A stretch of DNA of 64,000 bases from Tubulanus polymorphus. Lineage: Eukaryota; Animalia; Nemertea. Positions 6,902 through 64,000 of the stretch are shown in pieces. The stretch's first letter is position 1, and each line of letters opens with the position of its first letter. The stretch is from NCBI RefSeq assembly GCF_964204645.1, contig NC_134034.1, forward strand, positions 4,562,914 to 4,626,913. Direction: 5' to 3'. The translations under genes were made by a program, and so were the position numbers. The notes under the pieces were generated by a model. It was given only the letters and a program-made list of their open reading frames with translations, searched no databases and was not told where the DNA came from.

Positions 6902-8623
6902 TCCATCCGAGCTTGTTATGCAATTAAGGTAAAGCATTCATCAATCTTCACAGTCAAAAGTCATGAGATAAAATATGCAACACGAATACATATATTTCAT
7001 TCTAATTTCTATTTCCGCACATTTTAAGAAAAAGTCTAACGGAGATAAGAGATGTTATAAGCGTATGTTATATAAACTTGGTATGCTAGGTATAGTAAAA
7101 GTGCACCACACTAATTGTCATTCTTTATTCATTCATTCACATTCGCATTAACTGATTCAGATTCAGGTCTTCGACATAGAACACAGTGTACACGTTTGAA
7201 ATGTCAGTATTGCAGGCTTTTTGCCATTTAAACCGATTCAGGATCTGTGAACTTGAGAACTCAAGTCTCGGGCAGGTATTGGAAATAAACTTGCCTCAAA
7301 AACGACGACTTCGCCTCAAAATCATATAAACGTGGTACAGTAAGGGAACATCCCCATATTTTCTCGAGTGTAGCCACTTCGTAGGTGCTTTAGACGTACA
7401 CTGTATGTACAGAAAGTAACACTCGCTGGAAATACAACCCCATCGGAGCTTTAACTGCAGAGAGCGGGGCCATGCCAATAGTAAATGCCCCAACCTAGGA
7501 AAACCGCTAGTAACCTGGAAACCACGTTTTGCTGCTCCCACACATGCTGAAGATGCAATGTTACCTCTTCCCGCAATTAGTGCGGAAGGAGCCGATCTCA
7601 TGGAAGGGCTAGAAAACTCCACAACTCCAGGTGAAAATCTCAGCATAGCAAAGTGGTGGCCAACCGGATCAGTCATGCACCTAGAGTAGCAGCAGTTTAG
7701 GATTCAGTTGATATTTCAATCTCTCAATGAGTTCGTCGAACCGAGGTTATACCATTTTTGGGATAATAGTGGCATGTGCAAAGTTGCTCGCCACAGTAAT
7801 CCGGAACGTGATAACAAGATGCATATCTTGGCATTGGCAATCCAGGAGGAACAAAATGTGCAAACTCTCCCGAAGAGTTAAAACGGGCACAGGACATTGC
7901 GATTAAGAACTTTCTCCCTGATGCGTCTTGCTTCGAGGGAGAACGCTAGCCGCAGTGACCATGCAAAGGATACTCTATGCGCATGGCTTGTTTCAATTCC
8001 CCTTAAAAAATTCGTATGCACGCACATTCCACATTAACAACGTACGAGTCGGATGTAGCATTCCTCGGAGTAATTCAGGTAAATGTTACCTGTTATTCAT
8101 TGTTTACAATATACTTCACTATTTCATACTATGAATGTGTAAGAGAATCATAATCAATTTAACGGGTTAATTTAATTTTTCAAACCTCAAATAAGACACG
8201 CTAATAACAGCCTAATTTGGTAGCAATGAGGACTCACATTCTCATATACGAGCACGAGTATGTTATATGGGGGGAAATATAATGATATCTAAGTTTTTCA
8301 TTTAATCTCATTTAAGGAAACCCTCGCCTCGACGGAAGGAACGATTCGAATTCTCGAAGAACTGCAGCGATATATCCCGCCTTATCCTAACGGTGACCGT
8401 TCGGGATTTTGTCATGGGGTGAGCAGCTCTCGTGCGAATGGCATGATGTTGAAAAAAATGAACACCGGAAATTCGTGGAAAATACTCGAGGGATTGGGTT
8501 CTACGCCTCAGGAGTTCCCTTAACGGATGCTCCTGATGCAAGATGCAAAGAAAACTTTAGGCTCAGGCCAAGCATCGCTGAAAAAGATTAGCAGGATTAG
8601 CGGTGGGTAATTAAGGAAATTGT
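6902..8623. repeat. Dispersed repeat, copy A (related to 19950-21828 and 21827-22865)
   Basis: Near-identical sequence by direct comparison; ORFs MTDPVGHHFAMLRFSPG at 7296-7676 and 20690-20941, and MLRGRTL at 7928 and 21193. Confidence 0.9.
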
Positions 8624-8644
8624 AATATCGTAATCACCGATATA

Positions 8645-8900
8645 TTCTTATGATGCGACCCTTAAGTATATAGCTAGATTTTTATCCTTGCACAACTCAT
8701 CCACTAGATCGTCTATTATGTATAAATGTTTCTTTTCAATATCTATGTTCTCGTATATTTCTTCGGGAATCCCTCGACAAATTCTACACAATGAATTAGC
8801 TCCGGATACTAACATCGTAAAACAATGTTTAAACTTTGTCGGTCCGTCGTATTCGGTCATAACCGATTCGTATCTTGACGTTTCGATTCGTTATATTATC
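8645..8900 (-). pseudogene. Remnant of a Polinton-type A32/FtsK packaging ATPase (second lineage)
   Basis: FKHCFTMLVSG (pre-Walker A), then GIPEEIY...LYIIDDL (Walker B); internally deleted. Confidence 0.55.
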
Positions 8901-18429: not shown

Positions 18430-19310
18430 AGATTGCAATACCAATGTCAACTGGAAAACTGTTTAATTTCTTTTTTCATATTGTTCATAATTAGACAATC
18501 TATAACATGTGTTACATCTTGTGTTGAATATTTTTAACTTAATATTGACCCCAAAGAAAACATTTTTCGTCTTCATTTTGAACATTAATTACTACTTTTG
18601 TAAAAATATTCACATCTGTTGTGTATAGTGAAACATTTTCGATATTTTGGGATTTTGATTTTTTTTCTGGTTTTATTAGGAAAAGTTAAATCTAAAAATA
18701 CTATTTCATCTAGTGATAAACCAGGACCTACGCAATATCTTTCTTCAATACGTGTTCTAAAATTCATTAATTTCTTTAATATAACTTCCATTTGAACTTT
18801 TGAATATGATGTGTTACTTTTTCATCATATTTAATAAATATAACATTACCAGCTAAACAAGTTTAAGAATATTCAACATCTGTAACAAAATTCATAATAG
18901 TTTTCATTAATTCTAAATGATTTTCAAAATCCTCAACTGTTCAATCATTATGAAATGTAATAATTAATGCAGCTGGTTCAACTTTCTAGCTAAATGATTC
19001 AATGATTTCAAAATCATCCTCATCATATCTAATGAATTTATCTAGTCATTGATATTTTTCATAAAAGCCTTGTCTGTCTTTGTAGTTTTAATGGTTTTTT
19101 CCCATTGTTTTTTAGCAACGAAATATTCGTTGCCTAAAAACATTTTACTTATATTCTTTTTATGTTTTAGAGAATCTAACTGTCCCTTAAATTTCTTTTT
19201 TAATATATTCATCACAAATATTGCAATAAATGTCATATAATTTATAGAATATATTTTTTTCATCCGAATTTAATTTGTCAACATCTATTTTTTTATGTTG
19301 ATGCGATACA
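18430..19310 (-). pseudogene. Diverged fragment of the N-terminal region of the same Polinton PolB family
   Basis: IEERYCVGPGLSLDEIVFLDL matches IEERYFEGSGLTLNEIIYLDL of the 23589 ORF; LDSLKHKKNISKMFLGNEYF matches LESQKHHQNLSNNVLGKDYF. Confidence 0.75.
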
Positions 19311-26500: not shown

Positions 26501-28652
26501 ATATCCTGAAAATATAAAGTTTAAAACAAGAAACTTACCTTATTGCCCAGAACATTTAACTGTAAATGATAGTTATTTAAGTGAATACCAGAAGAAAATA
26601 AAACCGAAAGATCATGTTTTTACAGAAAAATTAATACTTACTCAAAATAATAAATACAATTATATTGTTCATTATAGAATGTTAAAATTTTATCTAAAAC
26701 AGGGAATGAAATTAAAGAAAGGACATAGATATATTGAATTTAATCAATCGAAGTGGTTAGAAAAATATATAGATTTCAATACTCAACAGAGAACCATATC
26801 AAAAATAGATTTTGAAAAAGATTTCTTCAAATTAATGAACAATAGTTTTTATGGTAAAACATGCGAAAGTATTAGAAATAGAAACGATATTGAATTAGTA
26901 AATAATTCTGAAAGATTAAGACATTTACAATCAAGTCCTAGACATTTAGGAAATAAAAGATTTGAAGATTATTTAACAGCAGTTAAATTAAAAAGAACGT
27001 CAATGAAATTTAATAAACCTATATTTATTGGTTCGACTGTTTTAGAAATATCAAAATTATTAATGTATGATTTTTATTATAATGTTTTACAACCACTTTT
27101 GGGGAAAAGCATATTGAAATATTATATTTTGATTCTGTAACAGCTGACAACCCATATTATTAAAATGTAATGCTAAAATATTGATAAGAAGAATTTCAGA
27201 AATAATTCCAAAACAAAATGAATGTTATATTTCATATGGTGAAAAAGAATTAATACAAATAAATGGTTTAATGGATGTTTGGACAAGAAATGGATGGAAA
27301 AAATTAAAGAATATTATTAGGCATAAAACAAATAAGAAAATCTATAGAGTTAGAACTAAATTAGGATTTGTAGATGTTACAGAAGATCATAGTTTAATTA
27401 AACGAAATGGCGATGAAATAAAACCAACTAATATAAAAATTGGAGATGAATTATTACATAAAAGATTTTTCCAAAGAATAAATCATATGTCATTTGATGA
27501 AATAATTGATAATATTTATAATATAGAACCCGAAACATTAGAAGAAAAAGAATATTTTATCAAAGGATTTTTCATGGGAGATGGTTCAGCAGGTGTGTAT
27601 AATTATGTTTGGGGTAATAAATATTGTTGGTATTTATGCAATCAAGACTTAAAATTATTAGAAAGAATAAAGAAATTCTGTGAAGAAGTTTATCCAAATA
27701 AAACATTTAGAATCATGGATGTTATGAAATCATCAGCAGTTTATAGAATACTTGTAAATAATCCTAAAGATTTTGCTATAAAATATGATGATGAATTCTA
27801 TATTCATGCAATAGTTAAAAGTAATACTTCAACAAAAGAAAAGATAGTTCCAGATTATGTATTAAATGCAAAAGATAATTTAAGAAAATGGTTCTTCATT
27901 GGATTCTACGCAGCAGATGGTACTAAAAAATTTACAAATGATAAAAAGATAACCTTTGCACAGAAAGGAAAAGTTGCTATATCAGGATTGAATATATTAT
28001 GCAGTTCATTAGGATTTAATATGAATATAGAATTAATTCAATCTAAACCAAATTATTTTAATTTAAGGCATGTAGAAAAAGATTTAACTGAAGAAGTTAA
28101 AGATTTATTTGAAATATATAACCCAACTGACTATGTTTATGATTTATCAACAGATGATGGAACATTCAATTCTGGGTTCTCATTAATCCAAAAAATACCG
28201 ATAGTTACATACTAAAAATCAAGACAAATGATATAACAAAAGACTTAAAAACATTAAAACATCATTTTGATTTTAGCAATTATCCCAAAGATCATGAACT
28301 ATTTAGCAATGATAATAAATAGATTCCCGGTAAATTTAAAGATGAACTAGGGGGTGATGAAATGATTGAATTTGTTGGGATAAGAAGTAAAATGTATAGT
28401 TATAGAACAAAAGATCATGAAGCTAAAAAGTTAAAAGGAATAACAAAACATGTGGTTGATAAACATATAGAATTTCAAGATTATATAAAGTGTTTATATA
28501 ACTCAATTGTAATGAAACACAAAATGAATTGTTTAAGATCAGAAGATCACGAGATGTACATTAATGAAGTTGAAAAAACTAGTTTGAATCCATTTGATGA
28601 TAAAAGGCATATTTTAGATGATGGTATAAAAACATTACCTTATGGTTATTAA
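23589..28652 (+). pseudogene. polB: Protein-primed family B DNA polymerase with intein; disrupted by frameshifts and a stop (ORFs 23589-25220, 25341-27140, 27181-28215, 28362-28652)
   Basis: N-terminal C2H2 fingers; INVQNEDNKCFLWS; ExoI IYGDFES; Endonuclease VII/HNH-like RDHDHLNSKYRGAAHEDCN; ExoII FHNLSGYDTH; IRFLDSYRFL; ExoIII YLKSDV; SIRGG; motif A YIDANNLYG; motif B KLMNNSFYGK; motif C YFD|intein|TDS; GKFKDE; RSKMYS; KLKGI; DDKR. Confidence 0.95.
27134..28196 (+). other. Intein with LAGLIDADG homing endonuclease in PolB motif C (copy 1)
   Basis: Block A starts SVTAD immediately after YFD; block B VTEDHS; LAGLIDADG motifs FIKGFFMGDGS and FFIGFYAADG; block F YVYDLSTDDGTF; ends KN followed by TDSY. 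One frameshift near each end; ~355 aa when restored. Confidence 0.93.
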
Positions 28653-29965
28653 AACATAAAATCAATATCATCATAATCGAAATCACTATTGGCTTCTTCA
28701 TTTTCATTTAATTTTTTAGGTTCTTCTTCCATTCCATTTTTCTGATTTACATAAAGTTCTATCTTGTTCCACATTTCATCTCGCTCTCTTTGTTTCTTTT
28801 TGTTTGTTAATTCGTCAAATGGAATTATAATATCTAGGTTTAAATAATTTACAATCTTATTTAAATAGAATTCATAATTTATTGAATCTGTTATTCTATT
28901 TTCCAAATGATACATTAATATTTGTTTGAATATTTTTTTTTATATTTTTCATATCTTCTTCTGTTAATTTAGGTTTTTCATAATAATCGTTAAGTAATAA
29001 ATATAAATACATTTTCTTTTGTTTTGTGTTAAATGTTGATGGAATAATTGTTTTTATAATATCTTTTTTAATTATTTCACCATTTTTATTTTCTATTATT
29101 TTTATTTTTTCAAGCCATTGCATATATTCTGGTGTATGATCTTCTATAGAACATATTTTGAAATTTCATCTAGATAATTTAATTTTGGATCTATGAGAAA
29201 ATTTCTAGTTTTTTCTTCACCCAATAAATTCTTTTGCCATCCACATTCATTACAAAATAACACAGTACCTTCTTGTTTTAAGGTCGCATAACTACATTGT
29301 GGGCATTTTTGTTTATAATTTATTGGTAATAGATCTTCATTAAGCTCTTGGTATTTTCTTACGTTTTCTTTATGTTTTATTGTTCTATTATGTAGATTTG
29401 AATTACTTGTTGTAATAATCAATTTACAATATTTACAATGATATGTTTTTCTTGTTAATTCATTATATTGTTTTTCTAACTTTTCAACTGTTTCTTTATT
29501 ATCTGGTAACGTTTTCTCATATTTTATTTTTTCTAATACATTATGTTTTCTTTCGTTGAATTCAGTTTCAAATTTATTAGAAATTTTATCTATATGTGCT
29601 TTACGAAATTGATGATTCTCCCAATCTTCTATATTTTCAGGGTTATATTTCATTCGACAAGGCTCACAGAAATGATCTTTTATATTATCCGTATCATAGA
29701 ATAAGAAAGGTCTTTTCCAAATAACTTCAGGTTCAACTTCAGCAGAATTACTATTACTTTCATTACTACCAACATTAGCCGTTGCGCCATTAATTCTACA
29801 CTTCTCTGAATGTTTTTTAACATAATTTCTTGAAAATAATTTATTACATTTTGGACAGTTTAGTTTAGGGGGTTTATAATTTTCATCATGTTTTTTCATA
29901 TGTCGAGCCATATTACTTTTTCTTAGAAGTTCACCACAAATTTCGCATGCTATCTTCTCATCCAT
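28649..29965 (-). pseudogene. Multi-zinc-finger protein (one gene split into three ORFs by frameshifts)
   Basis: CEICGELLRKSNMARHMKKH, CPKC, CKYC..H..H, CPQC..CNEC. Copy 2 reads through the junctions between these three ORFs in frame. Confidence 0.8.
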
Positions 29966-41977: not shown

Positions 41978-42210
41978 CCCACTTTTACAATTACTATCAG
42001 CGATGAATCGTGACGAATTGTAAGAAGGATTACGATGAGCTCCACCACTACCACCATTCATCAAAACGTTCATAACGACATAATGGAAAACTAACAACTA
42101 CAAGGATACAGATCTATGAGGAACGGTTTGCAAGACAGAGGTTAGAAAAAATGAAATATGTTTTTGTTTTATTGCAATAAGACTTTTTTTATTCGCGTAT
42201 TTTAAACGTA

Positions 42211-42420
42211 TTAGAAATATTCATTTACAAATTCGTAACGTGTATCATTGTCACATCTCGTAAGGATTTTACTTAAAAAGATCTCGAGTATTCGTTCATT
42301 CGATGCGATGGTTTTATTTCGCAGAAATATTTTTCGCGTCGGATGATGTAGTTCATATTTCGTACAACTTTGCCAGCGCTCCCATAACCCCGGTTTTCGG
42401 GGTGTATAATACTGCATTTT
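42211..42420 (-). pseudogene. Integrase remnant of a second Polinton lineage
   Basis: YYTPRKP...YELHHPTRKIFLRNKTI...DTRYEFVN resembles the N-terminus and second Asp region of Polinton integrases (compare the 38490 ORF). Confidence 0.6.
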
Positions 42421-42567
42421 TAGAAACTCTACAGAATTCATCGATACGAATAACCTCTCCAATACAACAATTGGCGACGGCAGGCCGCAACAAGACATTG
42501 AACGTTTGAAATTAAAATAGAATAAAAGAAGGATTTCACGAGATATATAATAATATACTTTAATATA

Positions 42568-43081
42568 TTATTTTTTACAACATTCGTTCACGTATTTTAT
42601 TAGAATCTGGTAGACGCTATTCATGTCGGTTGTGGATCTAGCACCCACTACGATAACGGTACAGACTCGGTGAATGAGGCATTTGACCGTGATATAATAT
42701 TCGCAAACAAGGCCCGGGAAAATCTCTGGTCCATACTGACAGTTCTCGTTTTTTCGGCTTAACTCGATTAGATCGATCGTTCTTAAGGTTTTAGCAATGC
42801 CGGTCATAGTCTGAACTTTGAAATTGTTAAAACGTACTGCTTAAACCTAAACGCTGTATTTTCCTGGCAAATCGTCGATAAATCGTCATTGCTCCGTCGA
42901 TAGACACACAAATCTACCGGTTTAAAACAATAAAAAGGTCTCGGATATTTTTCGACTTTTCACTATCAGAGCGCTAAAACTTTTACGATTGTAAATTACG
43001 TCGTGTTATCATCGAGCCATCTTAGTTAAATCGATTGCACAATTCATTTCAGCGGTAACCAAAACGTTAAAGTTTTGTCAT
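42568..43081 (-). pseudogene. Intronless TATA-box-binding-protein-like gene in a Polinton remnant
   Basis: Repeat 1: NVLVTAEMNCAIDL...YNRKSFSALIVKSRKISETFLLF*TGRFVC; linker RRFARKIQRLG. Repeat 2: FNNFKVQTMTG...IDL...QYGPEIFPGLV...VKCLIH..TVIVVGARS. Confidence 0.8.
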
Positions 43082-44160
43082 ACAGCATTTTCGTTTACAA
43101 TTTTAGATCTGAGAATAATATAGCCAGAAATTCAAAGCGACCGGTATCCGTTACAATTACAATTGACGACCGAGAAAGAAATGACAAATGCGTAGACGCG
43201 CTACACATCATTCGTCGCACATTCGAAAACGTTCTCGGCGGTATCAGTGACCGACTTGACGTGAACTCTCGTGATTGTACCCGTATATCAATACATCAAC
43301 CGTCATTGGCCATCAATATCAATCTATGTTTTATGCCGTACGAACGATAGACTGTTGATTTTCTGTTGACTATTACTATTATTATTATTATTATTATTAT
43401 TATTGTTTTTATTATTATTATAATAATTATTATTACCATTATTATAATTACTTTATTATTATTATTATTATTATTGATTAGCATTATTATTATCAATAGC
43501 ATTATTTACATAAGTATAACTGCACATTCCCCTGCACTCTGCACAAGGTTCCAGTGCCTTAATTTTAAGTACAACCTGTTGGCTTGCACTGGATACCTCG
43601 TAACCGTACTATGTTATTTGGTAAAAGTATTTTGCGGCTGATCGCAAGACGAATAACCATTAATCGGTGGATCTCGCTACCGATTTCAAATCAAAAAAGA
43701 CCAATTCAACGTTTAACAAGACGACGACAGTTTTTTGATTTTGAAACGGACTCCTCCTCGCCCCCGTACACACCGTGGCATATCCTGAAGCGGATCGTAG
43801 ATGGCTTTTTACAGACACGCATCGCGGGGCAACCGTATTTGCCCATAACTTTAAGGCGTTCGACGGTATTTTCGTTTAAAAATACCTGGTCAAGTTTGGA
43901 ATAATCCCGTCGATTAAACCGGTCGGTGGTAAGATTCTCTCGATGAAAGTCGAGCATCTCGAGATGACATTGTTGGATTCGTTTAGTTGCTTGCCGATGA
44001 AACTGGCGAAATTACCGAAGACGCTCGTCTTCGAAGAATTAAAGAAGGGCTACTTCCCTTACATTTTTGAAGACCAGAAAACATTGACTACGACGGACCG
44101 TTACCGGACGCGTGGTTCTATAACCCGGACAGTTTTACGGCGAAGTATCTAGAAAACGCT
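43075..44160 (+). pseudogene. polB: Degraded pPolB of a second Polinton lineage
   Basis: RISIHQPSL..NLCFMP; FFDFETD (ExoI); AHNFKAFDG (ExoII); LLDSFSCLPMKLAKLPKT..ELKKGYFPY. These signatures differ from the copy 1/2 polymerase. Confidence 0.8.
43369..43506. repeat. Imperfect (ATT)n microsatellite
   Basis: Seen directly; possibly the tail of a short retroposed insert at 43506-43620. Confidence 0.95.
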
Positions 44161-44199: not shown

Positions 44200-44705
44200 T
44201 TTCATTAGGATTATATCTTTAAATTCATTATCTAAGTCACATTGAATTGCAAAATCTTTAAAATTTCAATATATCACATTGAATTCCAATACATGCATTT
44301 GATTTATTACTATTAAAGATACTTTGTTTATTATCAAAATTAAAATAATTTAATAGTGGATTTTTAATTCTCAAGGTTCACAAATGATTAGCCTTTGAAA
44401 GTATTATATCACTTCGTTAAAATGAATTTTAAGAATAATTGTTATGGTTACATCTAATTTAGCTTCATTATTTAACACTGTGAAAATATTTTAGGATTTT
44501 CAACACCATTATCTAAAGTATCTATTAGTCCAATAATTAAATATGTTTCATTTAATAGTATTTGATTGATTATAGTGATATTATCAATATCATATTGTCT
44601 TCCATACACAAATTTTTATGCTGAGAAATCATTTTTAATGTTGAATAGTGAAAATAAGTTATTAGTTCCTTTTATTTCAAATTTGAATTCGGTTTCTTCT
44701 TTCAT
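44200..44705 (-). pseudogene. Decayed inverted paralog of the 46134-46799 ORF
   Basis: Minus strand MKEETEFKFEIKGTNNLFSLFNIKN vs MKTEEEEPNFKIEINETNKSFSQFYIKN; shared ttagatactttagataatgg and gcaattcaatgtgacttagataatga segments. Confidence 0.7.
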
Positions 44706-45556
44706 CTATATATAGCAAAATTTTCATTAAATTGATTTTCAAGATTATTTATATTTTAAAATCTAAATTATTTTACTCACACTTTAATATCTTAAAAATC
44801 TAAATTCTTTTACTCACACTTCACTAACACTTTGTATTTTAGAAACTATTGATATATCTAGCGATGAGAGGGACGACTAAGAAAGTGAGACTTCTTTAAG
44901 AATAATATAAGAATTCTTAGTTCCTTAATAATTTTGATAATTTCCTTTAATAATGCTTTAAGAATTCTTGGATGATAAAATTAAAATACGAACAATATTA
45001 TAACTAATTTATTTTTTCTAAATCAATTATCATTATATATTTCATACAATATTTTATCATTTTTATATATTTCACAGATCATTGTATTATCTTTTACTAT
45101 TCTTTAAATAAAAAGTATGAAAAATCTATTTTCATCAATCGTTAATTACCGGTTACTTTTTATCAATTATTTTACATATTTTGTTTTTCAAATTCTATAA
45201 CATGATGTCATTTTTAATCTTTACCTTTATAGATAATATAAAAGATACCTGATCATCATTTAAAACATCATATCTTCAATTAATTCTATTAAATCCATCT
45301 GGTAGATATGTTCCAAATTTATAATTATACATTAAACCTTCATATTCCGAATGTGTAAATTTATTTCCATATTTTGTTGTAATAATTTCAATATCTGTGA
45401 TTAAATATCTTTTTATTCAATGGGTATTTACTTAACTTTATATCAATATAATACTAATGGATAGCCCGTGAAGACCACCATTTTTCAACGTAGAACTTCC
45501 TACCCATTAGTTCATTGCATACGAATTGAGTAGGAGCATTTTAAAGTGGCCTATTA

Positions 45557-45850: not shown

Positions 45851-46060
45851 AAAAGTGTGAGTAAAGTGTGAGTGAAATAATTCATATTTTAACAGATTTC
45901 GAGTAAAAATATAAGTAAAATAAATGGATAACTAAAAGAATATAAAAGTGTGAGTAAAGTGTGAGTGAAATAGTTTATATTTTAAACATATTTCAATATT
46001 TATATTTGTATGAGTTAGATTTTTAAACATTAAAAGTGTGAGTAAAGTGTGAGTGAAATA
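45851..46060 (+). repeat. Three spaced 29-bp direct repeats aaaagtgtgagtaaagtgtgagtgaaata
   Basis: Copies at 45851, 45944 and 46032; inverted partial copies (tttactcacactt) at about 44772 and 44809. Confidence 0.85.
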
Positions 46061-46133
46061 ATTCATATTTAAAACATTGAATATTTATATTTATATGTGT
46101 TGGATTCATTTTAATAAAAGTTTTGTTATTAAA

Positions 46134-46799
46134 ATGAAGACAGAAGAAGAAGAACCCAACTTTAAAATCGAAATCAATGAAACCAATAAATCATTTTCAC
46201 AGTTTTACATTAAAAATTATATTTCAGCAACAAATTTAGTGTCCGCAAGACATTATAAAATCGATAATATTACTATGATTAATCAAATATTATCAAATGA
46301 AACATATTTAATTATTGAACTAGTAGATACTTTTGATAATGGCGTTAATAATCCTAAATTGTTCAATACAGTTTTTAATTTTAAAGGAACTTTAGATGAA
46401 AACATCATTAATATTCTTAAAACTCCTTTCAATGAAAGAAATGATGATATAATACTTTCAAAAGATTACAATGATTTGATTGACTTAAGAATTGAAAGAA
46501 GACAATTATATTATTTCAATTTTGATAATAAACAAATTATCTATAATGAAAATTCATCAAATATTGGAATTCAATGTGAATTAGATAATGAAAAATCATA
46601 TAAAGATATTGCAGTTCAATGTAATTTAGATGATGAATTTAGAAAATTCAATCCTTATGAAAAAGTGCATTGTTATTGCGGAGGTAAATATTTAAAATCA
46701 CATAAATCAAAAAATTATGAAACAATTAAAGGAGTTAGTTTAACAATACCTTTTTTTCTTTACCGAATTAACCGTGTATTTACTAAGATAAATCTTTAG
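46134..46799 (+). CDS. AT-rich virus-like hypothetical protein with a C-terminal CxCG finger remnant
   Basis: Open frame 46077-46799 with likely ATG at 46134; repeated IQC(E/N)LD; HCYCGGKY..SHKSK. Confidence 0.5.
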   Translation: MKTEEEEPNFKIEINETNKSFSQFYIKNYISATNLVSARHYKIDNITMINQILSNETYLIIELVDTFDNGVNNPKLFNTVFNFKGTLDENIINILKTPFNERNDDIILSKDYNDLIDLRIERRQLYYFNFDNKQIIYNENSSNIGIQCELDNEKSYKDIAVQCNLDDEFRKFNPYEKVHCYCGGKYLKSHKSKNYETIKGVSLTIPFFLYRINRVFTKINL

Positions 46800-47221
46800 T
46801 GTACCGGGGAATCGTAGGCCTAAACTAAACAGGCCGTAGAGATATGGCGGAGAAAAGCTGTTATGTCGACGAGGTATCAAAATAAAAGAATATATTACTT
46901 TATTCGCGGGCTTCAACCATTTATCAATACTCTATATTTCCTACAGTACATACCGATCATTGTCAAATGCACAAGGTATTTACTAAATACAAGTATATAA
47001 CACACTCCTATCCGTATGCTGGACTCACACTTGACATTCGGAGTAAGCGTTCGCTCTGGGGGAAAGGAGATCGTTCGCTGTGTCGCTTGAAGTGTTTATC
47101 GAGTTTTACGCGACCTTAAGGCTTTAGTATGGTGGCTGATAAGATAAAAAAACATGAATATGCAAATGAGGGCGACATTACGACAAAACGACAAAACTAA
47201 AATAACGCGAGAAAACAATGA

Positions 47222-48066
47222 TTTTGATTTTGTCGCCCGCGACAATTCATTATTTTGGTTTTGTCACACGCGACAATTCAATATTGTGGTTTTATCGCCC
47301 GCGACAATTCATTATTTTGGTTTTATCGCCAGCGACAATTCATTATTTTGGTTTTGTCGCCCGAGACAATTCATTATTTTGGTTTTATCGCCGGCGACAA
47401 TTCATTATTACGGTTTTATCGCCCGCGACAATTCATTATTTTGGTTTTGTCGCCCGCGACAATTCACCTTTTTAGTTTTGTCGCCCGCGACAATTCACCA
47501 TTTTGGTTTTGTCACCCGCGAAAATTCATTATTTTGGTTTTATCGCCCGCGACAATTCATTATTTTGGTTTTGTCGCCAGCCACAATTCATTAGTTTGAT
47601 TTTGTCGCCCGCGACAATTCAATATTTTGGTTTTGTCGCCCGCGACAATTCACCATTTTGGTTTTGTCGCCTGGACAATTCACCATATTGGTTTTGTCGC
47701 CCGCGACAATTCACCATATTGGTTTTGTCGCCCGCGACAATTCATTATTTTGGTTTTGTCGCCCCCACAATTCTTTTTTTGGTTTTGTCGCTCGACATTT
47801 CATTAGTTTGGTTTTGTTGCTTGTGACAATTCATTATTTTGGTTTTGTCGCCCGCGACAATTCAATATTTTGGTTTTGTCGCCCGCCACAATTCAATATT
47901 TTGGTTTTATCGCCCACGACAATTCATTACTTTGGTTTTATCTCCAGCGACAATTCATTATTTTGGTTTTGTCGCCTGCGACAATTCTTCTTTTTGGTTT
48001 TGTCGCCCGCGACAATTAATTATTTTGGTTTTCATAATTTTGGTTTTGTCGCCCGTGGTTTTGTCG
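47222..48066. repeat. Minisatellite, ~27 copies of a 31-bp unit (ttttggttttgtcgcccgcgacaattcatta)
   Basis: Head-to-tail units with no spacers; translations repeat every 31 aa (3 units); internal hairpin TTGTCGC-CC-GCGACAA. Confidence 0.95.
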
Positions 48067-57033: not shown

Positions 57034-58075
57034 TATTTATAACATAAAAAAATTACCGCTCATCACTAAAAATTAATTTTAATAAAATTTTTCCTTAATA
57101 AATGGATGAGAAGATAGGATGTGAAATGTGTGGTGAACTTCTAAGAAAAAGTAATATGGCTCGACATATGAAAAAAACATGATGAAAATTATAAACCTCC
57201 TAAACTAAACTGTCCAAAATGTAATAAATTAATCTCAAGAAATTATGTTAAAAAACATTCAGAGAAGTGCAAAATAAATGGCGCAACGGCTAATGTTGAT
57301 AGTAACGAAAGTAATAGTAATTCTGTTGAAGTTGAACCTGAAATTATTTGGAAAAGACCTTTCTTATTCTATGATAAGGATAATATAAAAGATCATTTCT
57401 GCGAGCCTTGTCGAATAAAATACAGCCCTGAAAATATAGAAGATTAGGAGAATCATCAATTTCGTAAAGCACATATAGATAAAATTTCTAATAAATTTGA
57501 AACTGAATTCAATGTAAGAAAAAATAATATATTAGAAAAAATAAAATATGAGAAAACGTTACCAGATAATAAAGAAACAGTTGAAAAGTTAGAAAAACAA
57601 TATAATGAATTAACAAGAAAAATATATGATTGTAAATATTGTAAATTGATTATTACAACAAGTAATTCAAATCTACATAATAGAACAATAAAACATAAAG
57701 AAAACGTAAGAAAATACCAAGAGCTTAATGAAGATCTATTACCAATAAATTATAAACGAAAATGTCCACAATGTAGTTATGCGACCTTAAGGCAAGAAGG
57801 TACTGTGTTGTTTTGTAATGATTGTGGATGACAAAAGAATTTATGGGGTGAAGAAAAAACTAGAAATTTTCTCATAGATCCAAAATTAAATTATCTAGAT
57901 GAAATTTTTAAAATATTTTCTATAGAAGATCATACACCAGAATATATGCAATGGCTTGAAAAAATGAAAATAATAGAAAATAAAAATGGTGAAATAACTA
58001 AAAAAGATAACAAGAGAAATCCCACAATAAGATCAGCCAAAACGAGAAACTTGAATAGAAGAGTATATATATTTG

Positions 58076-58115
58076 CGCAACGTTTCGGCTAAAGACTATT
58101 AGCCATCATCAGGCG
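58076..58115 (-). ncRNA. Minimal type I hammerhead ribozyme (Penelope pLTR)
   Basis: Reverse complement of 61049-61088. Confidence 0.75.
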
Positions 58116-58434
58116 TACTGAGTACAGGAGAATATTACAAGATATTTATACAAGACCAAAACAATAGAAGCAGAGTGAGTGATTAAAATATTGAAAGGGG
58201 AATAGATTAAAGTAATGACATAACAACTAGAAAACAATGCTAAAGTAAGCAAGGCAAACTAGGGGCAATGTAGATTAAAGTAATTAATAAACAAAGACAC
58301 AAGCTAAAGTGATTAAAACGGGAGGACAAGCTAAGGGGTAATCAAATAAAACAAAGAGAAGGAACATGAAAGGCGATAATCAGTGAGTGAGTGGAAACAA
58401 GCAAACTATGATAAAGGCAAAACAATGGAGGGAA

Positions 58435-60297
58435 TTAGTATAACGGGGGTACAAGAGAAGCGAGAAATTTGGAGATCAAAATAATGTGGGGGGAGAAACC
58501 GTTATTCAAATTAACACAATTTTCCAAGTTTTCAATAATCAGGGCCGATTCCATAATGTGTCGTTTAATCTTTTCTGAACAGGGGAAAATTATGGAGGCA
58601 TTTTCAAAATCAAAATTGTGGCTGGTTTCGTATACGTGATTGGCAACACCGCTTTCAGGCTTAAAATTCTTTACATCATTCTTATGTTCACGAATGCGCT
58701 TGTGTAAATCGCGTCCGGTTTCGCCGATATATATTTTGTTACAAACTTTACAGGAAATTTTATATACACCAATGTTCAGGGGTTCAATTTTGGGGGAGTT
58801 ATGAGTAAGATTACGACTAAGTTTGTTGTTATAAGTAAAAATGAGTTGTTTGTTTAAGAGATGGAGGGGAGTTTTAGATTTTTCCAGAAAAGGAACAAAA
58901 GGTACAATAATAGGCTGTTTACGCGCGCGGGTCCCTTGAGAGTGACTGAAATGTGAACGACGGGCTCTCAAGAGAGCTTTATTCAAAATGTCGTCGGGGT
59001 AAGCTAATTTATTAAGAGAGGTCTTGATCTGGGTTAGTTCATCATCCAAGAAAAGGGGGTCACAAATCCTTAATGCGCGAAGGAATAAGCTTTGGGCAAC
59101 ACTAAGTTTAATGTTATGAGCGGTGAAGGAGAAATAATGTAGGTATGTTCCAGAGTGGGTAGGTTTCCTATAAACCGAGAATTTTAGACAAGACAAACAA
59201 TTGTGTATACAATCATCAAGGAAAGGGATTTTCCCATCAACTTCCAATTCAAATGTGAAGTTCAAGGAGGGATAAAAAGAGTTAATAAATGTGAGAAATT
59301 GATCAATATCAAAGTCAAAAGGTATAAGGGCAAGAATATCATCAACGTATCGTAACCAAAGTTTAGGGAGAGTATCTGTGTAAAGAGGTAGTAATTCGGT
59401 TTCAACGTGTTCCAGGAAAAGATTTGCTAGAATGGGACTAAGCGGGTTCCCCAGAGCCATGCCAAAAACCTGTTCGAAATATGAATTGTTGAAACTAAAA
59501 AAGGAGTTCTGGGTGCAAAGTTCAATTAATTCGATAATACAATCAGTAGGAATGTCAAAATTGAAATCCAACGAAGGAAGTTTCCGTTTAAGAAAATCAA
59601 GGGTAGGCCTAAGAGGAACATTGGTAAAAAGAGAACTAGCATCAAACGAAATGAATCTATCGTTACCAGGAATAATGTTTTTTAACCGTTCTAATAAATC
59701 TTGGTTGTGTCGTAAATGCGAGGCGGAGAAAGAACCAAGAGCCGGTGATAATTGTTTAGCCAGAAATTTGGATAAACGATAAGAGGGCGAATTACAATTA
59801 GATACAATGGGGCGCAGCGGAACATCTTTCTTATGGATTTTGGGGAGCCCATAGATATAAGGTAGGGAGGGTAGACGTGATTGAAATTTCGAAAGAATAT
59901 CTTTAGAGTCCGGAAACCGTTGGATAATACCAGACAGATTCTTATTGAATGAAGCTTGCATACGTGAGAGAGGGTTGGATTTCAATGGTTTATAAACATT
60001 AGAGTCACCAAGAAGGGAGAAGATTTTTTGATTATAATCACAGATATCTAAGAGAACAATTTTGCCACCTTTATCAGCTTTTGAAATACGAACAGAGTCT
60101 AGTTTTCTGAGTTCAGAGAGGGCAATCCTGAAACGACGAGGTAAAAATTCTGAGTAATTATAACGGAGGTTATCACAAATAGTTTGTAAGTTCATAAACA
60201 TAAAATTGTAGTCAAAATTCGAGGAAGATGTCTTGCGCTGTTCTAATTCCGACATAAAATCCAGGATGTTCGTCTTGCGGTGAGGTAAAGAAAAGTT
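58435..60297 (-). CDS. Penelope/Poseidon-type reverse transcriptase plus GIY-YIG endonuclease (5'-truncated, open frame)
   Basis: KADKG, YGLPKIHK, PLRPIVS, SFDASSLFTNVP, GMALGNPLSP, RYVDD, VYRKPT; GVYKISCKVCNKIYIGETGR...RIREH. Confidence 0.95.
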   Translation of the reverse strand, partial: NFSLPHRKTNILDFMSELEQRKTSSSNFDYNFMFMNLQTICDNLRYNYSEFLPRRFRIALSELRKLDSVRISKADKGGKIVLLDICDYNQKIFSLLGDSNVYKPLKSNPLSRMQASFNKNLSGIIQRFPDSKDILSKFQSRLPSLPYIYGLPKIHKKDVPLRPIVSNCNSPSYRLSKFLAKQLSPALGSFSASHLRHNQDLLERLKNIIPGNDRFISFDASSLFTNVPLRPTLDFLKRKLPSLDFNFDIPTDCIIELIELCTQNSFFSFNNSYFEQVFGMALGNPLSPILANLFLEHVETELLPLYTDTLPKLWLRYVDDILALIPFDFDIDQFLTFINSFYPSLNFTFELEVDGKIPFLDDCIHNCLSCLKFSVYRKPTHSGTYLHYFSFTAHNIKLSVAQSLFLRALRICDPLFLDDELTQIKTSLNKLAYPDDILNKALLRARRSHFSHSQGTRARKQPIIVPFVPFLEKSKTPLHLLNKQLIFTYNNKLSRNLTHNSPKIEPLNIGVYKISCKVCNKIYIGETGRDLHKRIREHKNDVKNFKPESGVANHVYETSHNFDFENASIIFPCSEKIKRHIMESALIIENLENCVNLNNGFSPHIILISKFLASLVPPLY

Positions 60298-61048
60298 CCT
60301 CCATCTCTTAAACAAACAACTCATTTTTACTTATAACAACAAACTTAGTCGTAATCTTACTCATAACTCCCCCAAAATTGAACCCCTGAACATTGGTGTA
60401 TATAAAATTCCCTGTAAAGTTTGTAACAAAATATATATCGGCGAAACCGGACGCGATTTACACAAGCGCATTCGTGAACATAAGAATGATGTAAAGAATT
60501 TTAAGCCTGAAAGCGGTGTTGCCAATCACGTATACGAAACCAGCCACAATTTTGATTTTGAAATGCCTCCATAATTTTCCCCTGTTCAGAAAAGATTAAA
60601 CGACACATTATGGAATCGGCCCTGATTATTGAAAACTTGGAAAATTGTGTTAATTTGAATAACGGTTTCTCCCCCCACAACATTTTGATCTCCAAATTTC
60701 TCGCTTCTCTTGTACCCCCGTTATACTAATTCCCTCCATTGTTTTGCCTTTATCATAGTTTGCTTGTTTCCACTCACTCACTGATTATCGCCTTTCATGT
60801 TCCTTCTCTTTGTTTTATTTGATTACCCCTTAGCTTGTCCTCCCGTTTTAATCACTTTAGCTTGTGTCTTTGTTTATTAATTACTTTAATCTACATTGCC
60901 CCTAGTTTGCCTTGCTTACTTTAGCATTGTTTTCTAGTTGTTATGTCATTACTTTAATCTATTCCCCTTTCAATATTTTAATCACTCACTCTGCTTCTAT
61001 TGTTTTGGTCTTGTATAAATATCTTGTAATATTCTCCTGTACTCAGTA

Positions 61049-61088
61049 CGCCTGATGATGGCTAATAGTCTTTAGCCGAAACGTTGCG
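61049..61088 (+). ncRNA. Minimal type I hammerhead ribozyme (Penelope pLTR)
   Basis: cgc-CTGATGA-t-ggctaa(tagtct)ttagcc-GAAA-cg-TT-gcg: core boxes, stem II ggctaa/ttagcc, stem I cgc/gcg, palindromic ACGT in place of stem III. Confidence 0.75.
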
Positions 61089-61614
61089 CAAATATATATA
61101 CTCTTCTATTCAAGTTTCTCGTTTTGGCTGAACTTATTGTGGGATTTCTCTTGTTATCTTCTTACACGGACATTGTGTATCTTCTCGTCTCAACTAAAAA
61201 AGATATTATAAAAACAATTATTCCGTCAACATTTAACACAAAACAAAAGAAAATGTATTTATATTTATTATTTAACGATTATTATGAAAAACCTAAATTA
61301 ACAGAAGATATGGAAAATATAAAAAGAATATTTAAACAAATATTAATGTATCATTTGGAAAATAGAATAACAGATTCGATAAATTATGAATTCTTTTTAA
61401 ATAAGATTGTAAATTATTTAAACATCGATATTATAATTCCATTTGATGAATTAACGAACAAAAAGAAACAAAGAGAGCGAGATGAAATGTGGTACAAGAT
61501 AGAACTTTATTTAAATGAGAAAAAATGAAATGGAAGAACCTAAACAAATTATACAAGAACAATTAAATGAAAAAGAAAAAACAAATAGTGATTTCGAGTT
61601 TGATGATATCCATT

Positions 61615-64000
61615 TTAATAACCATAAGGTAATGTTTTCATACCATCATCTGAAATATGTCTTTTATCATCAAATGGATTTAAACTAGTTTTTTCAACTT
61701 CATTAATGTACATCTCGTGATCTTCTGATCTTAAACAATTCATTTTATGTTTCATTACAATTGAGTTATATAAACACTTTATATAATCTTGAAATTCTAT
61801 ATGTTTATCAACCACATGTTTTGTTATTCCTTTTAACTTTTTAGCTTCATGATCTTTTGTTCTGTAACTATACATTTTACTTCTTATCCCAACAAATTCA
61901 ATCATCACCCCCTAATTCATCTTTAAACTTACCAGGAATCTTTTTATTATCATTGCTAAATAGTTCATGATCTTTGGGATAATTGCTAAAATCAAAATGA
62001 TGTTTTAATGTTTGTAAGTCATTTGTTATGTCATTTGTCTTGATTTTTAGTATGTACGCAACCGTATTGACTGCTATTAATGGAAATCCACAGTTAAATT
62101 GTACCATCTTCAGTTGATAAATCATAAACATAAACTGATGGTTTGTATATTTTAAATAAATCCTTAACTTCTTCTGTTTACTCATTTTCTACATGACTTA
62201 AATTAAAACAATTTGGTTTAGATTTAATCAATCCAATATTCATATTAAAACCTAATGAATTGCATAATATATTCAATCCTGATATAGCAATATTTCCTTT
62301 TTGAGCTAAAGATATCGTTTTGCGGTTTTTGAAACTTTTTGAACCATCTGCAGCATAGAACCCAATGAAGAACCATTTTCTTAAATTATTTTTTGCATTT
62401 AATACATAATCTGGAACTATCTTTTCTTTTGTTGAAGTATTACTTTTCACTATTGCATGAATATAGAATTCATCATTATATTTTATTGCAAAATCTTTAG
62501 GATTATTTACAAGTATTCTATAAACTGCTGATGATTTCATAACATCCATGATTCTAAATGTTTTATGTGAATAAACTTCTTCACAGAATTTCTTAATTCT
62601 TTCTAATAATTTTAAGTCTTGATTGCATAAATACCAACAATATTTATTACCCAAATCATAATTATACACACCTGCTGAACCATCACCCATGAAAAATCCT
62701 TTGATAAAATATTCTTTTTCTTCTAATGTTTCGGGTTCTATATTATAAATATTATTAATAATTTCATCAAATGACATATGATTCATTCTTTGGAAAGATC
62801 TTTTATGTAATAATTCATCTCAAATTTTTATATCAGTTGGTTTTATTTCATCGCCATTTCGTTTAATGAAACTATGATCTTCTGTAACATCTACAAACCC
62901 TAATTTAGTTCTAACTCTATAGATTTTCTTATTTGTTTTATGCCTAATAATATTCTTTAATTTTTTCCATCCATTTCTTGTCCAAACATCCATTAATCCA
63001 TTTATTTGTATTAATTCTTTTTCACCATATGAAATATAACATTCATTTTGTTTTGGAATTATATCTGAAATTCTTCTTACCAATACTTTATCATTACATT
63101 TTAATAATATTGGGGTGTCAGCTGTAACAGAATCAAAATATGATATTTCAATATGCTTTTCCCCAAAAAGTGGTTGTAAAACATTATAATAAAAATCATA
63201 CATTAATAATTTTGATACTTCTAAAACAGTTGAACCAATGAATATAGGTTTATTAAATTTCATTGACGTTCTTTTTAATTTAACTGCGGTTAAATAATCT
63301 TCAAATCTTTTATTTCCTAAATGCCTAGGACTTGATTGTAGGTGTCTTAATCTTTCAGAATTATTTTCTAATTCAATATCATTTCTATTTCTAATATTTT
63401 CACATGTTTTACCACAAAAACTATTGTTCATTAATTTGAAGAAATCTTTTTCAAAATCCGTTTTTGATATGGTTCTCTGTTGAGTATTAAAATCTATATA
63501 TTTTTCTAACCACTTCGATTGATTAAATTCAATATATCTATGTACTTTCTTTAATTTCATTCCTTGTTTTAGATAAAATTTTAACATTCTATAATGAACA
63601 ATATAATTGTAGTATAAATAAGTATTAATTTTTCTGTAAAAACATGATTTTTCGGTTTTATTTTCTTCTGGTATTCACTTAAATAACTATCATCTACAGT
63701 TAAATGTTCTGGGCAATAAGGTAAGTTTCTTGTTTTAAACTTTATATTTTCAGGATATTCTAAATCAACTACAAAGAAATAACCAATTGGTGCTTCATCT
63801 TCTAAACTCATAATTGCGCTTTCCCAATTAGTTTTATCATCATTTTCAACTTCTGTTAATATAAAATTTTTATATGGTTGAGGTTGCATCATTGCCCAAC
63901 CATATAAATTATTGGCATCAATATATAATAATTTATATTCATCATTTGCTTTAAAATACCTCCCATAACACCACTCATTCCACCTCTAATTGATTTTTCA
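61615..64000 (-). pseudogene. polB: pPolB with intein (copy 2), C-terminal part, disrupted
   Basis: YIDANNLYG, KLMNNSFCGK, YFD|SVTADTP...AVN|TVAY, GKFKDE, RSKMYS, DDKR. Confidence 0.95.
62066..63131 (-). other. Intein with LAGLIDADG homing endonuclease (copy 2)
   Basis: In-frame N-junction ISYFD|SVTADTPILLK; VTEDHS; FIKGFFMGDGS; FFIGFYAADGS; YVYDLSTEDGT; in-frame C-junction FPLIAVN|TVAYILK. Confidence 0.93.

Follow-up and report, generated by a model that had tools for sequence, protein, structure and literature searches.

Polinton core genes are set out in section 3.1 of PMC8502044, and TBP is not among them. A TBP label does stand on the map of the MELD virus (Fig. 5 legend of Starrett et al. 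2021, PMC8502044; bioRxiv 10.1101/697771), a label that would put a gene of TBP type into an element of middle size that has an adintovirus-like PolB, as in the locus described here. The labelled gene is known from this legend entry, and the parts of PMC8502044 that were covered give no tree, residues or promoter for it; TBP does not occur in the readable text of its supplement, and neither TATA nor TBP occurs in the main text of PMC11071308. A literature search, outside which most subscription papers lay, yielded no published description of a Polinton TBP family beyond that legend. Among other viruses, a mirusvirus TBP exists, according to the accessible part of PMC10132985. The timing of capsid genes in integrated Polintons is little known, and particle formation is a long-standing question.

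We analysed a 64-kb stretch of DNA (the window, in whose positions all coordinates are given) containing a TBP-like gene. Our reading, which we hold to be likely, is that the gene belongs to a dead Polinton remnant with an element-borne TBP that, in working relatives, reads a TATA variant of its own for packaging and capsid genes.

A TBP-like pseudogene in a CpG-rich remnant

The window is eukaryotic DNA rich in repeats, and its Polintons, Penelope elements and LINE point to an animal genome. Approximately 23.5–41 kb and 48–64 kb are occupied by two AT-rich Polinton copies, which are inverted relative to each other and share about 93% identity. Between them sits an island at 42.0–44.2 kb with a GC content of 33–44%, which is bounded by high-copy repeats; other repeats truncate the remnant within it at about 41995 and 44200 (Table 1). 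The observed/expected CpG ratio was 1.8–2.0 in the integrase, TBP and PolB parts of the island, against 0.5–0.6 in the flanking Polintons.

Table 1. Features of the remnant island, in window positions.
Feature	Position	Strand	Remarks
Further piece of the CpG-rich remnant, joined to the cut integrase	42069..42288		CpG o/e 1.77; different contig matches, with 24 other letters and 9 gaps
rve integrase N-terminal remnant	42290..42447	-	Directly downstream of TBP, same strand; gap near 42353; ends at about 42290
TBP-like pseudogene, core domain, two repeats	42568..43070	-	Motifs, Pfam TBP, solved TBPs, second copy
Probable internal-deletion junction	43070..43073		Contigs depart from opposite sides
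Element-derived stretch, putative pPolB N-terminal region	43073..43360	+	CpG o/e 1.98; other contigs map onto it
Later insertion: (AAT)n tract and about 100 CpG-poor high-copy bases	43371..43600	-	CpG o/e 0.23; depth 1357 against about 40 nearby
pPolB exonuclease-domain remnant	43730..44160	+	Motifs FFDFET, AHNFKAFDG, KKGYFPY; frameshifted, cut off

The four TBP motifs quoted in the earlier note were all found on the minus strand. YNRKSFSALIV, FKVQTMTG and YGPEIFPGL share one frame and RRFARKIQRLG lies in another, so that two frameshifts flank the latter; the frameshifted stretch, around the basic helix, runs from about 42900 to 42835. In-frame stops occur near 43011, 43008 and 42924, all three in the first repeat, and the 5′ end is apparently truncated at about 43070. 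The Pfam check suggested in the earlier note was positive for both repeats: the translation of 43110–42571 (minus strand, X at the stops) matched Pfam TBP (PF00352) in two stretches with an E value of 8.4e-23 and 80.5 bits against a cut-off of 22.9. Solved TBPs were matched with an E value of 2e-15. Neither an intron nor an N-terminal extension was found in the gene, which bears out its description as intronless and limited to the core domain, and no other TBP-like stretch was found within the 64-kb window. The TBP-like gene is a genuine TBP homologue, now a pseudogene.

In yeast TBP numbering anchored on F99, the gene keeps F99, F116, F190 and N69, whereas position 207 is H and positions 159 and 161 are T; the four intercalating Phe and both Asn (69 and 159) of canonical TBP are thus not all present. 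Three of the four Phe are kept in the window gene, whereas TRF2/TBPL1 is marked by the loss of three, and the single TRF2 row compared lacks F99, F116 and F190, all of which the window gene has.

In regards to the flanks, the integrase remnant aligned to the N-terminal part (about 85 residues) of the integrase of contig L001, described below, with a tblastn E value of 2.7e-5 and a score reached by none of 300 shuffles; it gave no Pfam match. As an integrase of the AT-rich Polintons it was rejected, the score being reached by 206 of 300 shuffles. The pPolB remnant matched Pfam DNA_pol_B_2 (E 5e-12) and was 45% identical to protein P0196 over 43799–44071. The stretch next to the TBP, presumably the pPolB N-terminal region from its motif resemblance, gave no Pfam match and no usable Atlas match and lies outside the reach of the P0196 alignment. 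The insertion that follows it, with a 3-base array at 43371–43493, is likely the 3′ tail of a retroposon. Packaging ATPase, protease and capsid genes were not found in the window remnant.

The PolB of the AT-rich neighbours found no match within the island, so this is a second Polinton lineage, as the earlier note had proposed. The position of the TBP between an integrase remnant and a divergently oriented pPolB remnant was confirmed in orientation and on both flanks, and the immediate adjacency was probably made by deletion.

Other features of the window were as follows. In each AT-rich Polinton, a LAGLIDADG-bearing intein interrupts the pPolB immediately ahead of the TDS in the polymerase motif, at 27148–28212 (plus strand; Pfam E 7.6e-7) and 62100–63113 (minus strand; E 2e-6). 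The accessible part of PMC11071308 mentions that homing endonucleases have inserted into polinton pPolBs; a complete intein in what is probably an animal genome may merit attention. These Polintons also carry a gene for a VLTF3-like late transcription factor (28739–29042, minus strand, and 61076–61528, plus strand; Pfam E 1.5e-5), and both lineages would therefore bear a transcription factor of their own. A Penelope-like element at 58001–61163, with RT and GIY-YIG (58438–60330) and an 867-base inverted repeat at 99% identity, splits the VLTF3-like gene region of the second AT-rich copy. Positions 18517–19218 hold an older fragment, 64% identical, from the 5′ region of the AT-rich Polinton PolB, and a tandem array of 26 copies of a 31-base unit lies between the two AT-rich Polintons at 47221–48032. 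The stretches 44200–44786 and 46043–46662 are inverted copies, 74% identical, of a mid-copy repeat whose 245-codon ORF belongs to no known family.

A clade of short divergent TBPs

A protein search over 1.84 billion representatives gave 884 matches. The top match, P0003, is a duplicated plant TBP that scored twice and was set aside; after it, P0004 (39%) and P0005 (36%) were the best among the 150 matches listed. These two and 17 more proteins of 169–210 residues make up a clade that holds the window gene. The predicted fold of P0004, an intact relative, was a clean TBP saddle (pLDDT 96).

The window protein fell inside the clade with a FastTree support of 0.98 (155 of 163 proteins) and with SH-aLRT values of 95 (60 chosen rows, quick search, in which the window row is a flagged long branch of 1.53) and 99 (27 rows); the trees and the profile that show the grouping also served to select the clade members. 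On the 27 rows, forcing the window gene together with canonical TBP made the tree 30 log units worse, a borderline rejection (AU p 0.044). A forced grouping with the one TRF2 row was not rejected (p 0.079). The phylogeny called for in the earlier note thus set the gene, narrowly, apart from canonical TBP. N159T together with V161T/S was found in 19/19 relatives and in the window gene, where the canonical rows have N and V in 17/17. Because of the long branch and of members picked by the same methods, we regard this residue pattern as a stronger sign than the tree. By sequence comparison, the window TBP groups with 19 short divergent TBPs, apart from cellular TBP.

The clade profile score was discarded as a diagnostic, as canonical TBPs scored 119–163 bits against 126 for the window gene. 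Ten further short divergent TBPs (P0022, P0040, P0056, P0058, P0093, P0097, P0112, P0128, P0143 and P0148) fell outside both the clade and canonical TBP and may be other mobile-element TBP lineages.

Other searches gave no additional relatives. Scans of viral contigs with P0001, P0005, the PolB piece, P0196, P0004, the L001 capsid-like ORF and the L001 integrase found none, and a word-based protein search with P0001 returned one archaeal-type TBP and nothing else. In a 13-sequence alignment, conservation was nowhere high enough to support a locus scan. The three loci found by a PolB motif scan were all without TBP, and none of the 23 loci from a TBP-helix motif scan of prokaryote genomes matched the TBP profile. 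L003 was rejected as a relative: its match was a chance one of 30 residues, with no TBP match.

Gene order, the TBP/PolB junction and the origin of the gene

The sole placed member of the 19 relatives is P0005, carried by L001 (7486 bases), which with the 99.5% identical L002 represents one element. L001 is an almost unbroken Polinton segment. It comprises a zinc-finger gene (opposite strand), an ATPase with a single stop close to the start, two ORFs (125 and 257 residues), the TBP and a whole rve-chromo integrase, followed by ORFs of 247, 133 and 440 residues and an adenoviral protease; the Pfam matches of the ATPase (E 0.001) and the protease (E 0.004) are weak. The ORFs after the integrase, which we take to be penton-like and capsid-like, gave no Pfam match. 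At 8606–8787 (minus strand) the window contains a second ATPase, also decayed, that resembles the one in L001 (42% identity, E 2e-7), so the window holds further remnants of the L001 Polinton class.

Moreover, reads of the same species contained a second TBP–integrase copy, 86–91% identical to that of the window. This copy, a 5590-base contig (X1), covers 42572–42837 and 42908–43070 of the TBP, with 37 other letters in 266 and 15 in 163, respectively. At the integrase start it covers 42306–42479, with 68 extra letters at 42353/42354, and then diverges from the window. Its TBP is joined to the integrase in runs from two studies. Run X4, from another study, supports the second copy and had 0/278 reads at ≥99%, which indicates that the window copy is not common to all samples. 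The TBP is therefore not confined to one copy of this family; its absence from other copies, which the earlier note had named as a sign against its reading, is not what was found. The gene stands directly upstream of the integrase in three places: the window, the second copy and L001.

The same comparison bears on the other side of the gene. The TBP-bearing contig departs from the window at 43070, in agreement with 22 reads of run X4, and another contig, which maps to 43073–43109 and 43187–43289, departs at 43073, with the same joint in X2 and X3. Upstream of its TBP, the second copy extends for 1790 bases, comparable to the about 2.1 kb that the ATPase and two ORFs occupy there in L001, and among the pieces listed none lies on 43071–43480. 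A similar junction cuts the integrase near 42290. We consider it quite likely, from these alignments, that an internal deletion at 43070/43073 placed the TBP beside PolB.

The TBP and PolB might instead, as the earlier note implied, be native head-to-head neighbours with a shared two-way promoter in this lineage. They do face apart in the window, Polinton gene order varies, and the departure of the second copy at 43070 could be divergence, the TBP–integrase spacer being also too diverged to align at 80%. Two different contigs that depart from opposite sides at 43070 and 43073 nevertheless speak against native adjacency, as do the upstream bases of the second copy (three of whose pieces fall outside the listing), the upstream genes of L001 and the second such junction near 42290; moreover, if 43073–43360 is indeed the pPolB N-terminal region, as we presume, there is no room for two promoters. 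We therefore regard native adjacency as unlikely. Of the integrase–TBP–PolB synteny that had been proposed for testing, the TBP–integrase half is conserved in L001 and the second copy, and the PolB half is not, which is a caution that gene adjacency in decayed copies can arise by deletion.

In regards to origin, the grouping with the clade, N159T and V161T/S, the TBP–integrase order in L001 and the second copy, and the high CpG content shared with the element argue that the TBP is element-borne. They likewise uphold the view that it is not a recent processed host pseudogene. A retrocopy of a host TBP or TRF2, inserted into this Polinton copy or captured by it on a single occasion and since decayed, would explain the intronless gene. 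It would also fit an identity to some canonical TBPs (up to 31.7%, in a range of 26–32%) that comes near that of the best clade members (35.2%) and a TRF2 grouping that was not rejected, and the comparisons were made without the host's own TBP. A further point in favour of a retrocopy is the absence of a third-position excess: among the 23 of 52 differences between the two copies that were listed, 8 fall at third codon positions (p 0.52), and purifying selection between the two is therefore not evident. A retrocopy would, however, have to carry the residues diagnostic of the clade, recur in the same order before the integrase in the unrelated contig L001 and in the second copy, and possess the CpG content of the element, and we judge it very improbable.

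By hand count, 7 of the 23 listed differences are silent, six of them within ten codons of the second stirrup motif, P-E-I-F-P-G-L, which is identical in both copies. Coding parts align at 86–96% between the copies, and most of the TBP–integrase spacer does not align at 80%. Long-term constraint on the predicted protein is clear from the unbroken relatives, not from the pair of copies.

Proposed function and comparison with known systems

Among the 19 relatives, the first repeat keeps N69 (19/19), F99 (18/19) and F116 (19/19), and the basic helix keeps R137 and R141 (both 19/19). Position 188, that of the TFIIB-stirrup acid E188, is acidic in 19/19, P187 is kept and F190 is kept in 15/19. In the second repeat, position 205 is never Leu and position 207 is Phe in 8/19; T124 is retained in 1/19. 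According to the accessible parts of PMC12529657, E188 is a TFIIB contact and ORF24 of KSHV has polar residues at positions 161 and 205. The altered second repeat points to a factor of changed specificity more than to a general TBP, and it is the first-repeat DNA contacts, the basic helix and the acid at 188, kept while the second repeat is altered, that favour a functional reading.

A candidate box, YWTWAAAAG, occurs 7 times in L001 against 1.55 expected (0/200 shuffles), the motif having been chosen post hoc, after the sequence was viewed, and in one element. Five of the seven occurrences lie 15–174 bases before the starts of the ATPase, ORF125 (twice), the integrase and a capsid-like ORF. 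No occurrence was found just before the L001 TBP on the TBP strand; this gene has three ATTGG boxes and one TGACTCA instead. The occurrence after the L001 TBP stop resembles a polyadenylation signal, and the window has a one-base-short look-alike there and no clear copy. The candidate box differs from TATAAAAG in the first two bases, which form the side read by the second repeat of TBP. According to the part of PMC1636458 that was covered, L205 is situated close to TATA base 2 and belongs to the three yeast TBPm3 changes that alter the reading of this base.

These observations are consistent with the following scheme. The element would have had a Polinton/Maverick gene set in which a short, divergent TBP immediately preceded the integrase, and the remnant in the window is dead and probably twice deleted. 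In working elements, expression would begin with the TBP gene, from a promoter of the host type. Its product would then read the variant TATA box of the element and bring host RNA polymerase II to the genes for packaging and capsid, thereby licensing the structural genes. That the element encoded its own basal transcription factor, as the earlier note put it, is plausible. For a TBP of changed specificity that uses host polymerase II to drive structural genes, we put the chances at about even.

The same protein could act as a decoy or repressor that occupies TATA boxes, or soaks up TFIIA, NC2, Mot1 or TAF1, and so dampens host transcription. R137 and R141 are invariant, against the fourth Phe in 8/19 and T124 in 1/19, so that a protein surface is held tighter than part of the DNA face, as a decoy would require. 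The retention of N69, F99, F116, P187 and an acid at 188 speaks against it, however, as does the candidate box before structural genes in L001; moreover, instead of scattering, the substitutions in the second repeat have settled on T and T/S, which fits a new specificity better than a loss. We consider a decoy or repressor to be improbable, though it is the chief alternative.

More broadly, and with somewhat less confidence than an even chance would give, a widespread Polinton lineage may have a one-protein late-gene switch, in which a 170-residue TBP, its second repeat rewired, recognises a box of the element's own, for instance (C/A/T)TTAAAAG, keeps its TFIIB contact and steers host polymerase II to capsid and packaging genes, converging with herpesviruses with the smallest parts list. 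An element-borne TBP and a matching box would offer a direct and small test of Polinton gene timing.

Compared with known systems, the locus resembles Polintons, Mavericks and adintoviruses in its pPolB and rve integrase remnants, and L001 does so in its integrase-chromo and its putative ATPase and adenoviral protease. The putative integrase–penton–ORF–hexon–protease order of L001 is similar to the order of labels in the Beta panel of Fig. S2 in the readable supplement of PMC8502044. Capsid genes, termini with inverted repeats and the 6-base target duplication are missing from the window remnant, truncated as it is by other repeats. With cellular TBP (PF00352) and TRF2/TBPL1 the gene shares the two repeats, which form a saddle in the predicted fold of P0004, N69, F99, F116, F190 and the YxPE stirrup. 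It differs from canonical TBP, to which it is 26–32% identical, in the absence of an N-terminal tail and in N159T and V161T/S.

The TBPs of Nucleocytoviricota and mirusviruses are likewise virus-encoded TBP folds. A BFVD search gave 46 matches at E ≤0.001, and the 50 matches listed had identities of 7–19%, so that no close link is shown. Among the TBP mimics of beta- and gammaherpesviruses, KSHV ORF24 is similar in having a viral TBP fold, a more polar DNA face (161 and 205 changed) and a variant late box; in contrast, it is large and multidomain, works in a six-member complex, keeps all four Phe and lacks the TFIIB acids (accessible parts of PMC12529657). The Polinton TBP has about 170 residues, keeps the acid at 188 and has often lost F207. 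It is a little-described variant of the viral TBPs, element-borne and, in this locus, dead. The window copy is accordingly a poor specimen, and study is better directed at intact relatives, of which L001 is an example; to the described systems, the locus adds a host lineage, a diagnostic residue pattern and the linkage of TBP to the integrase.
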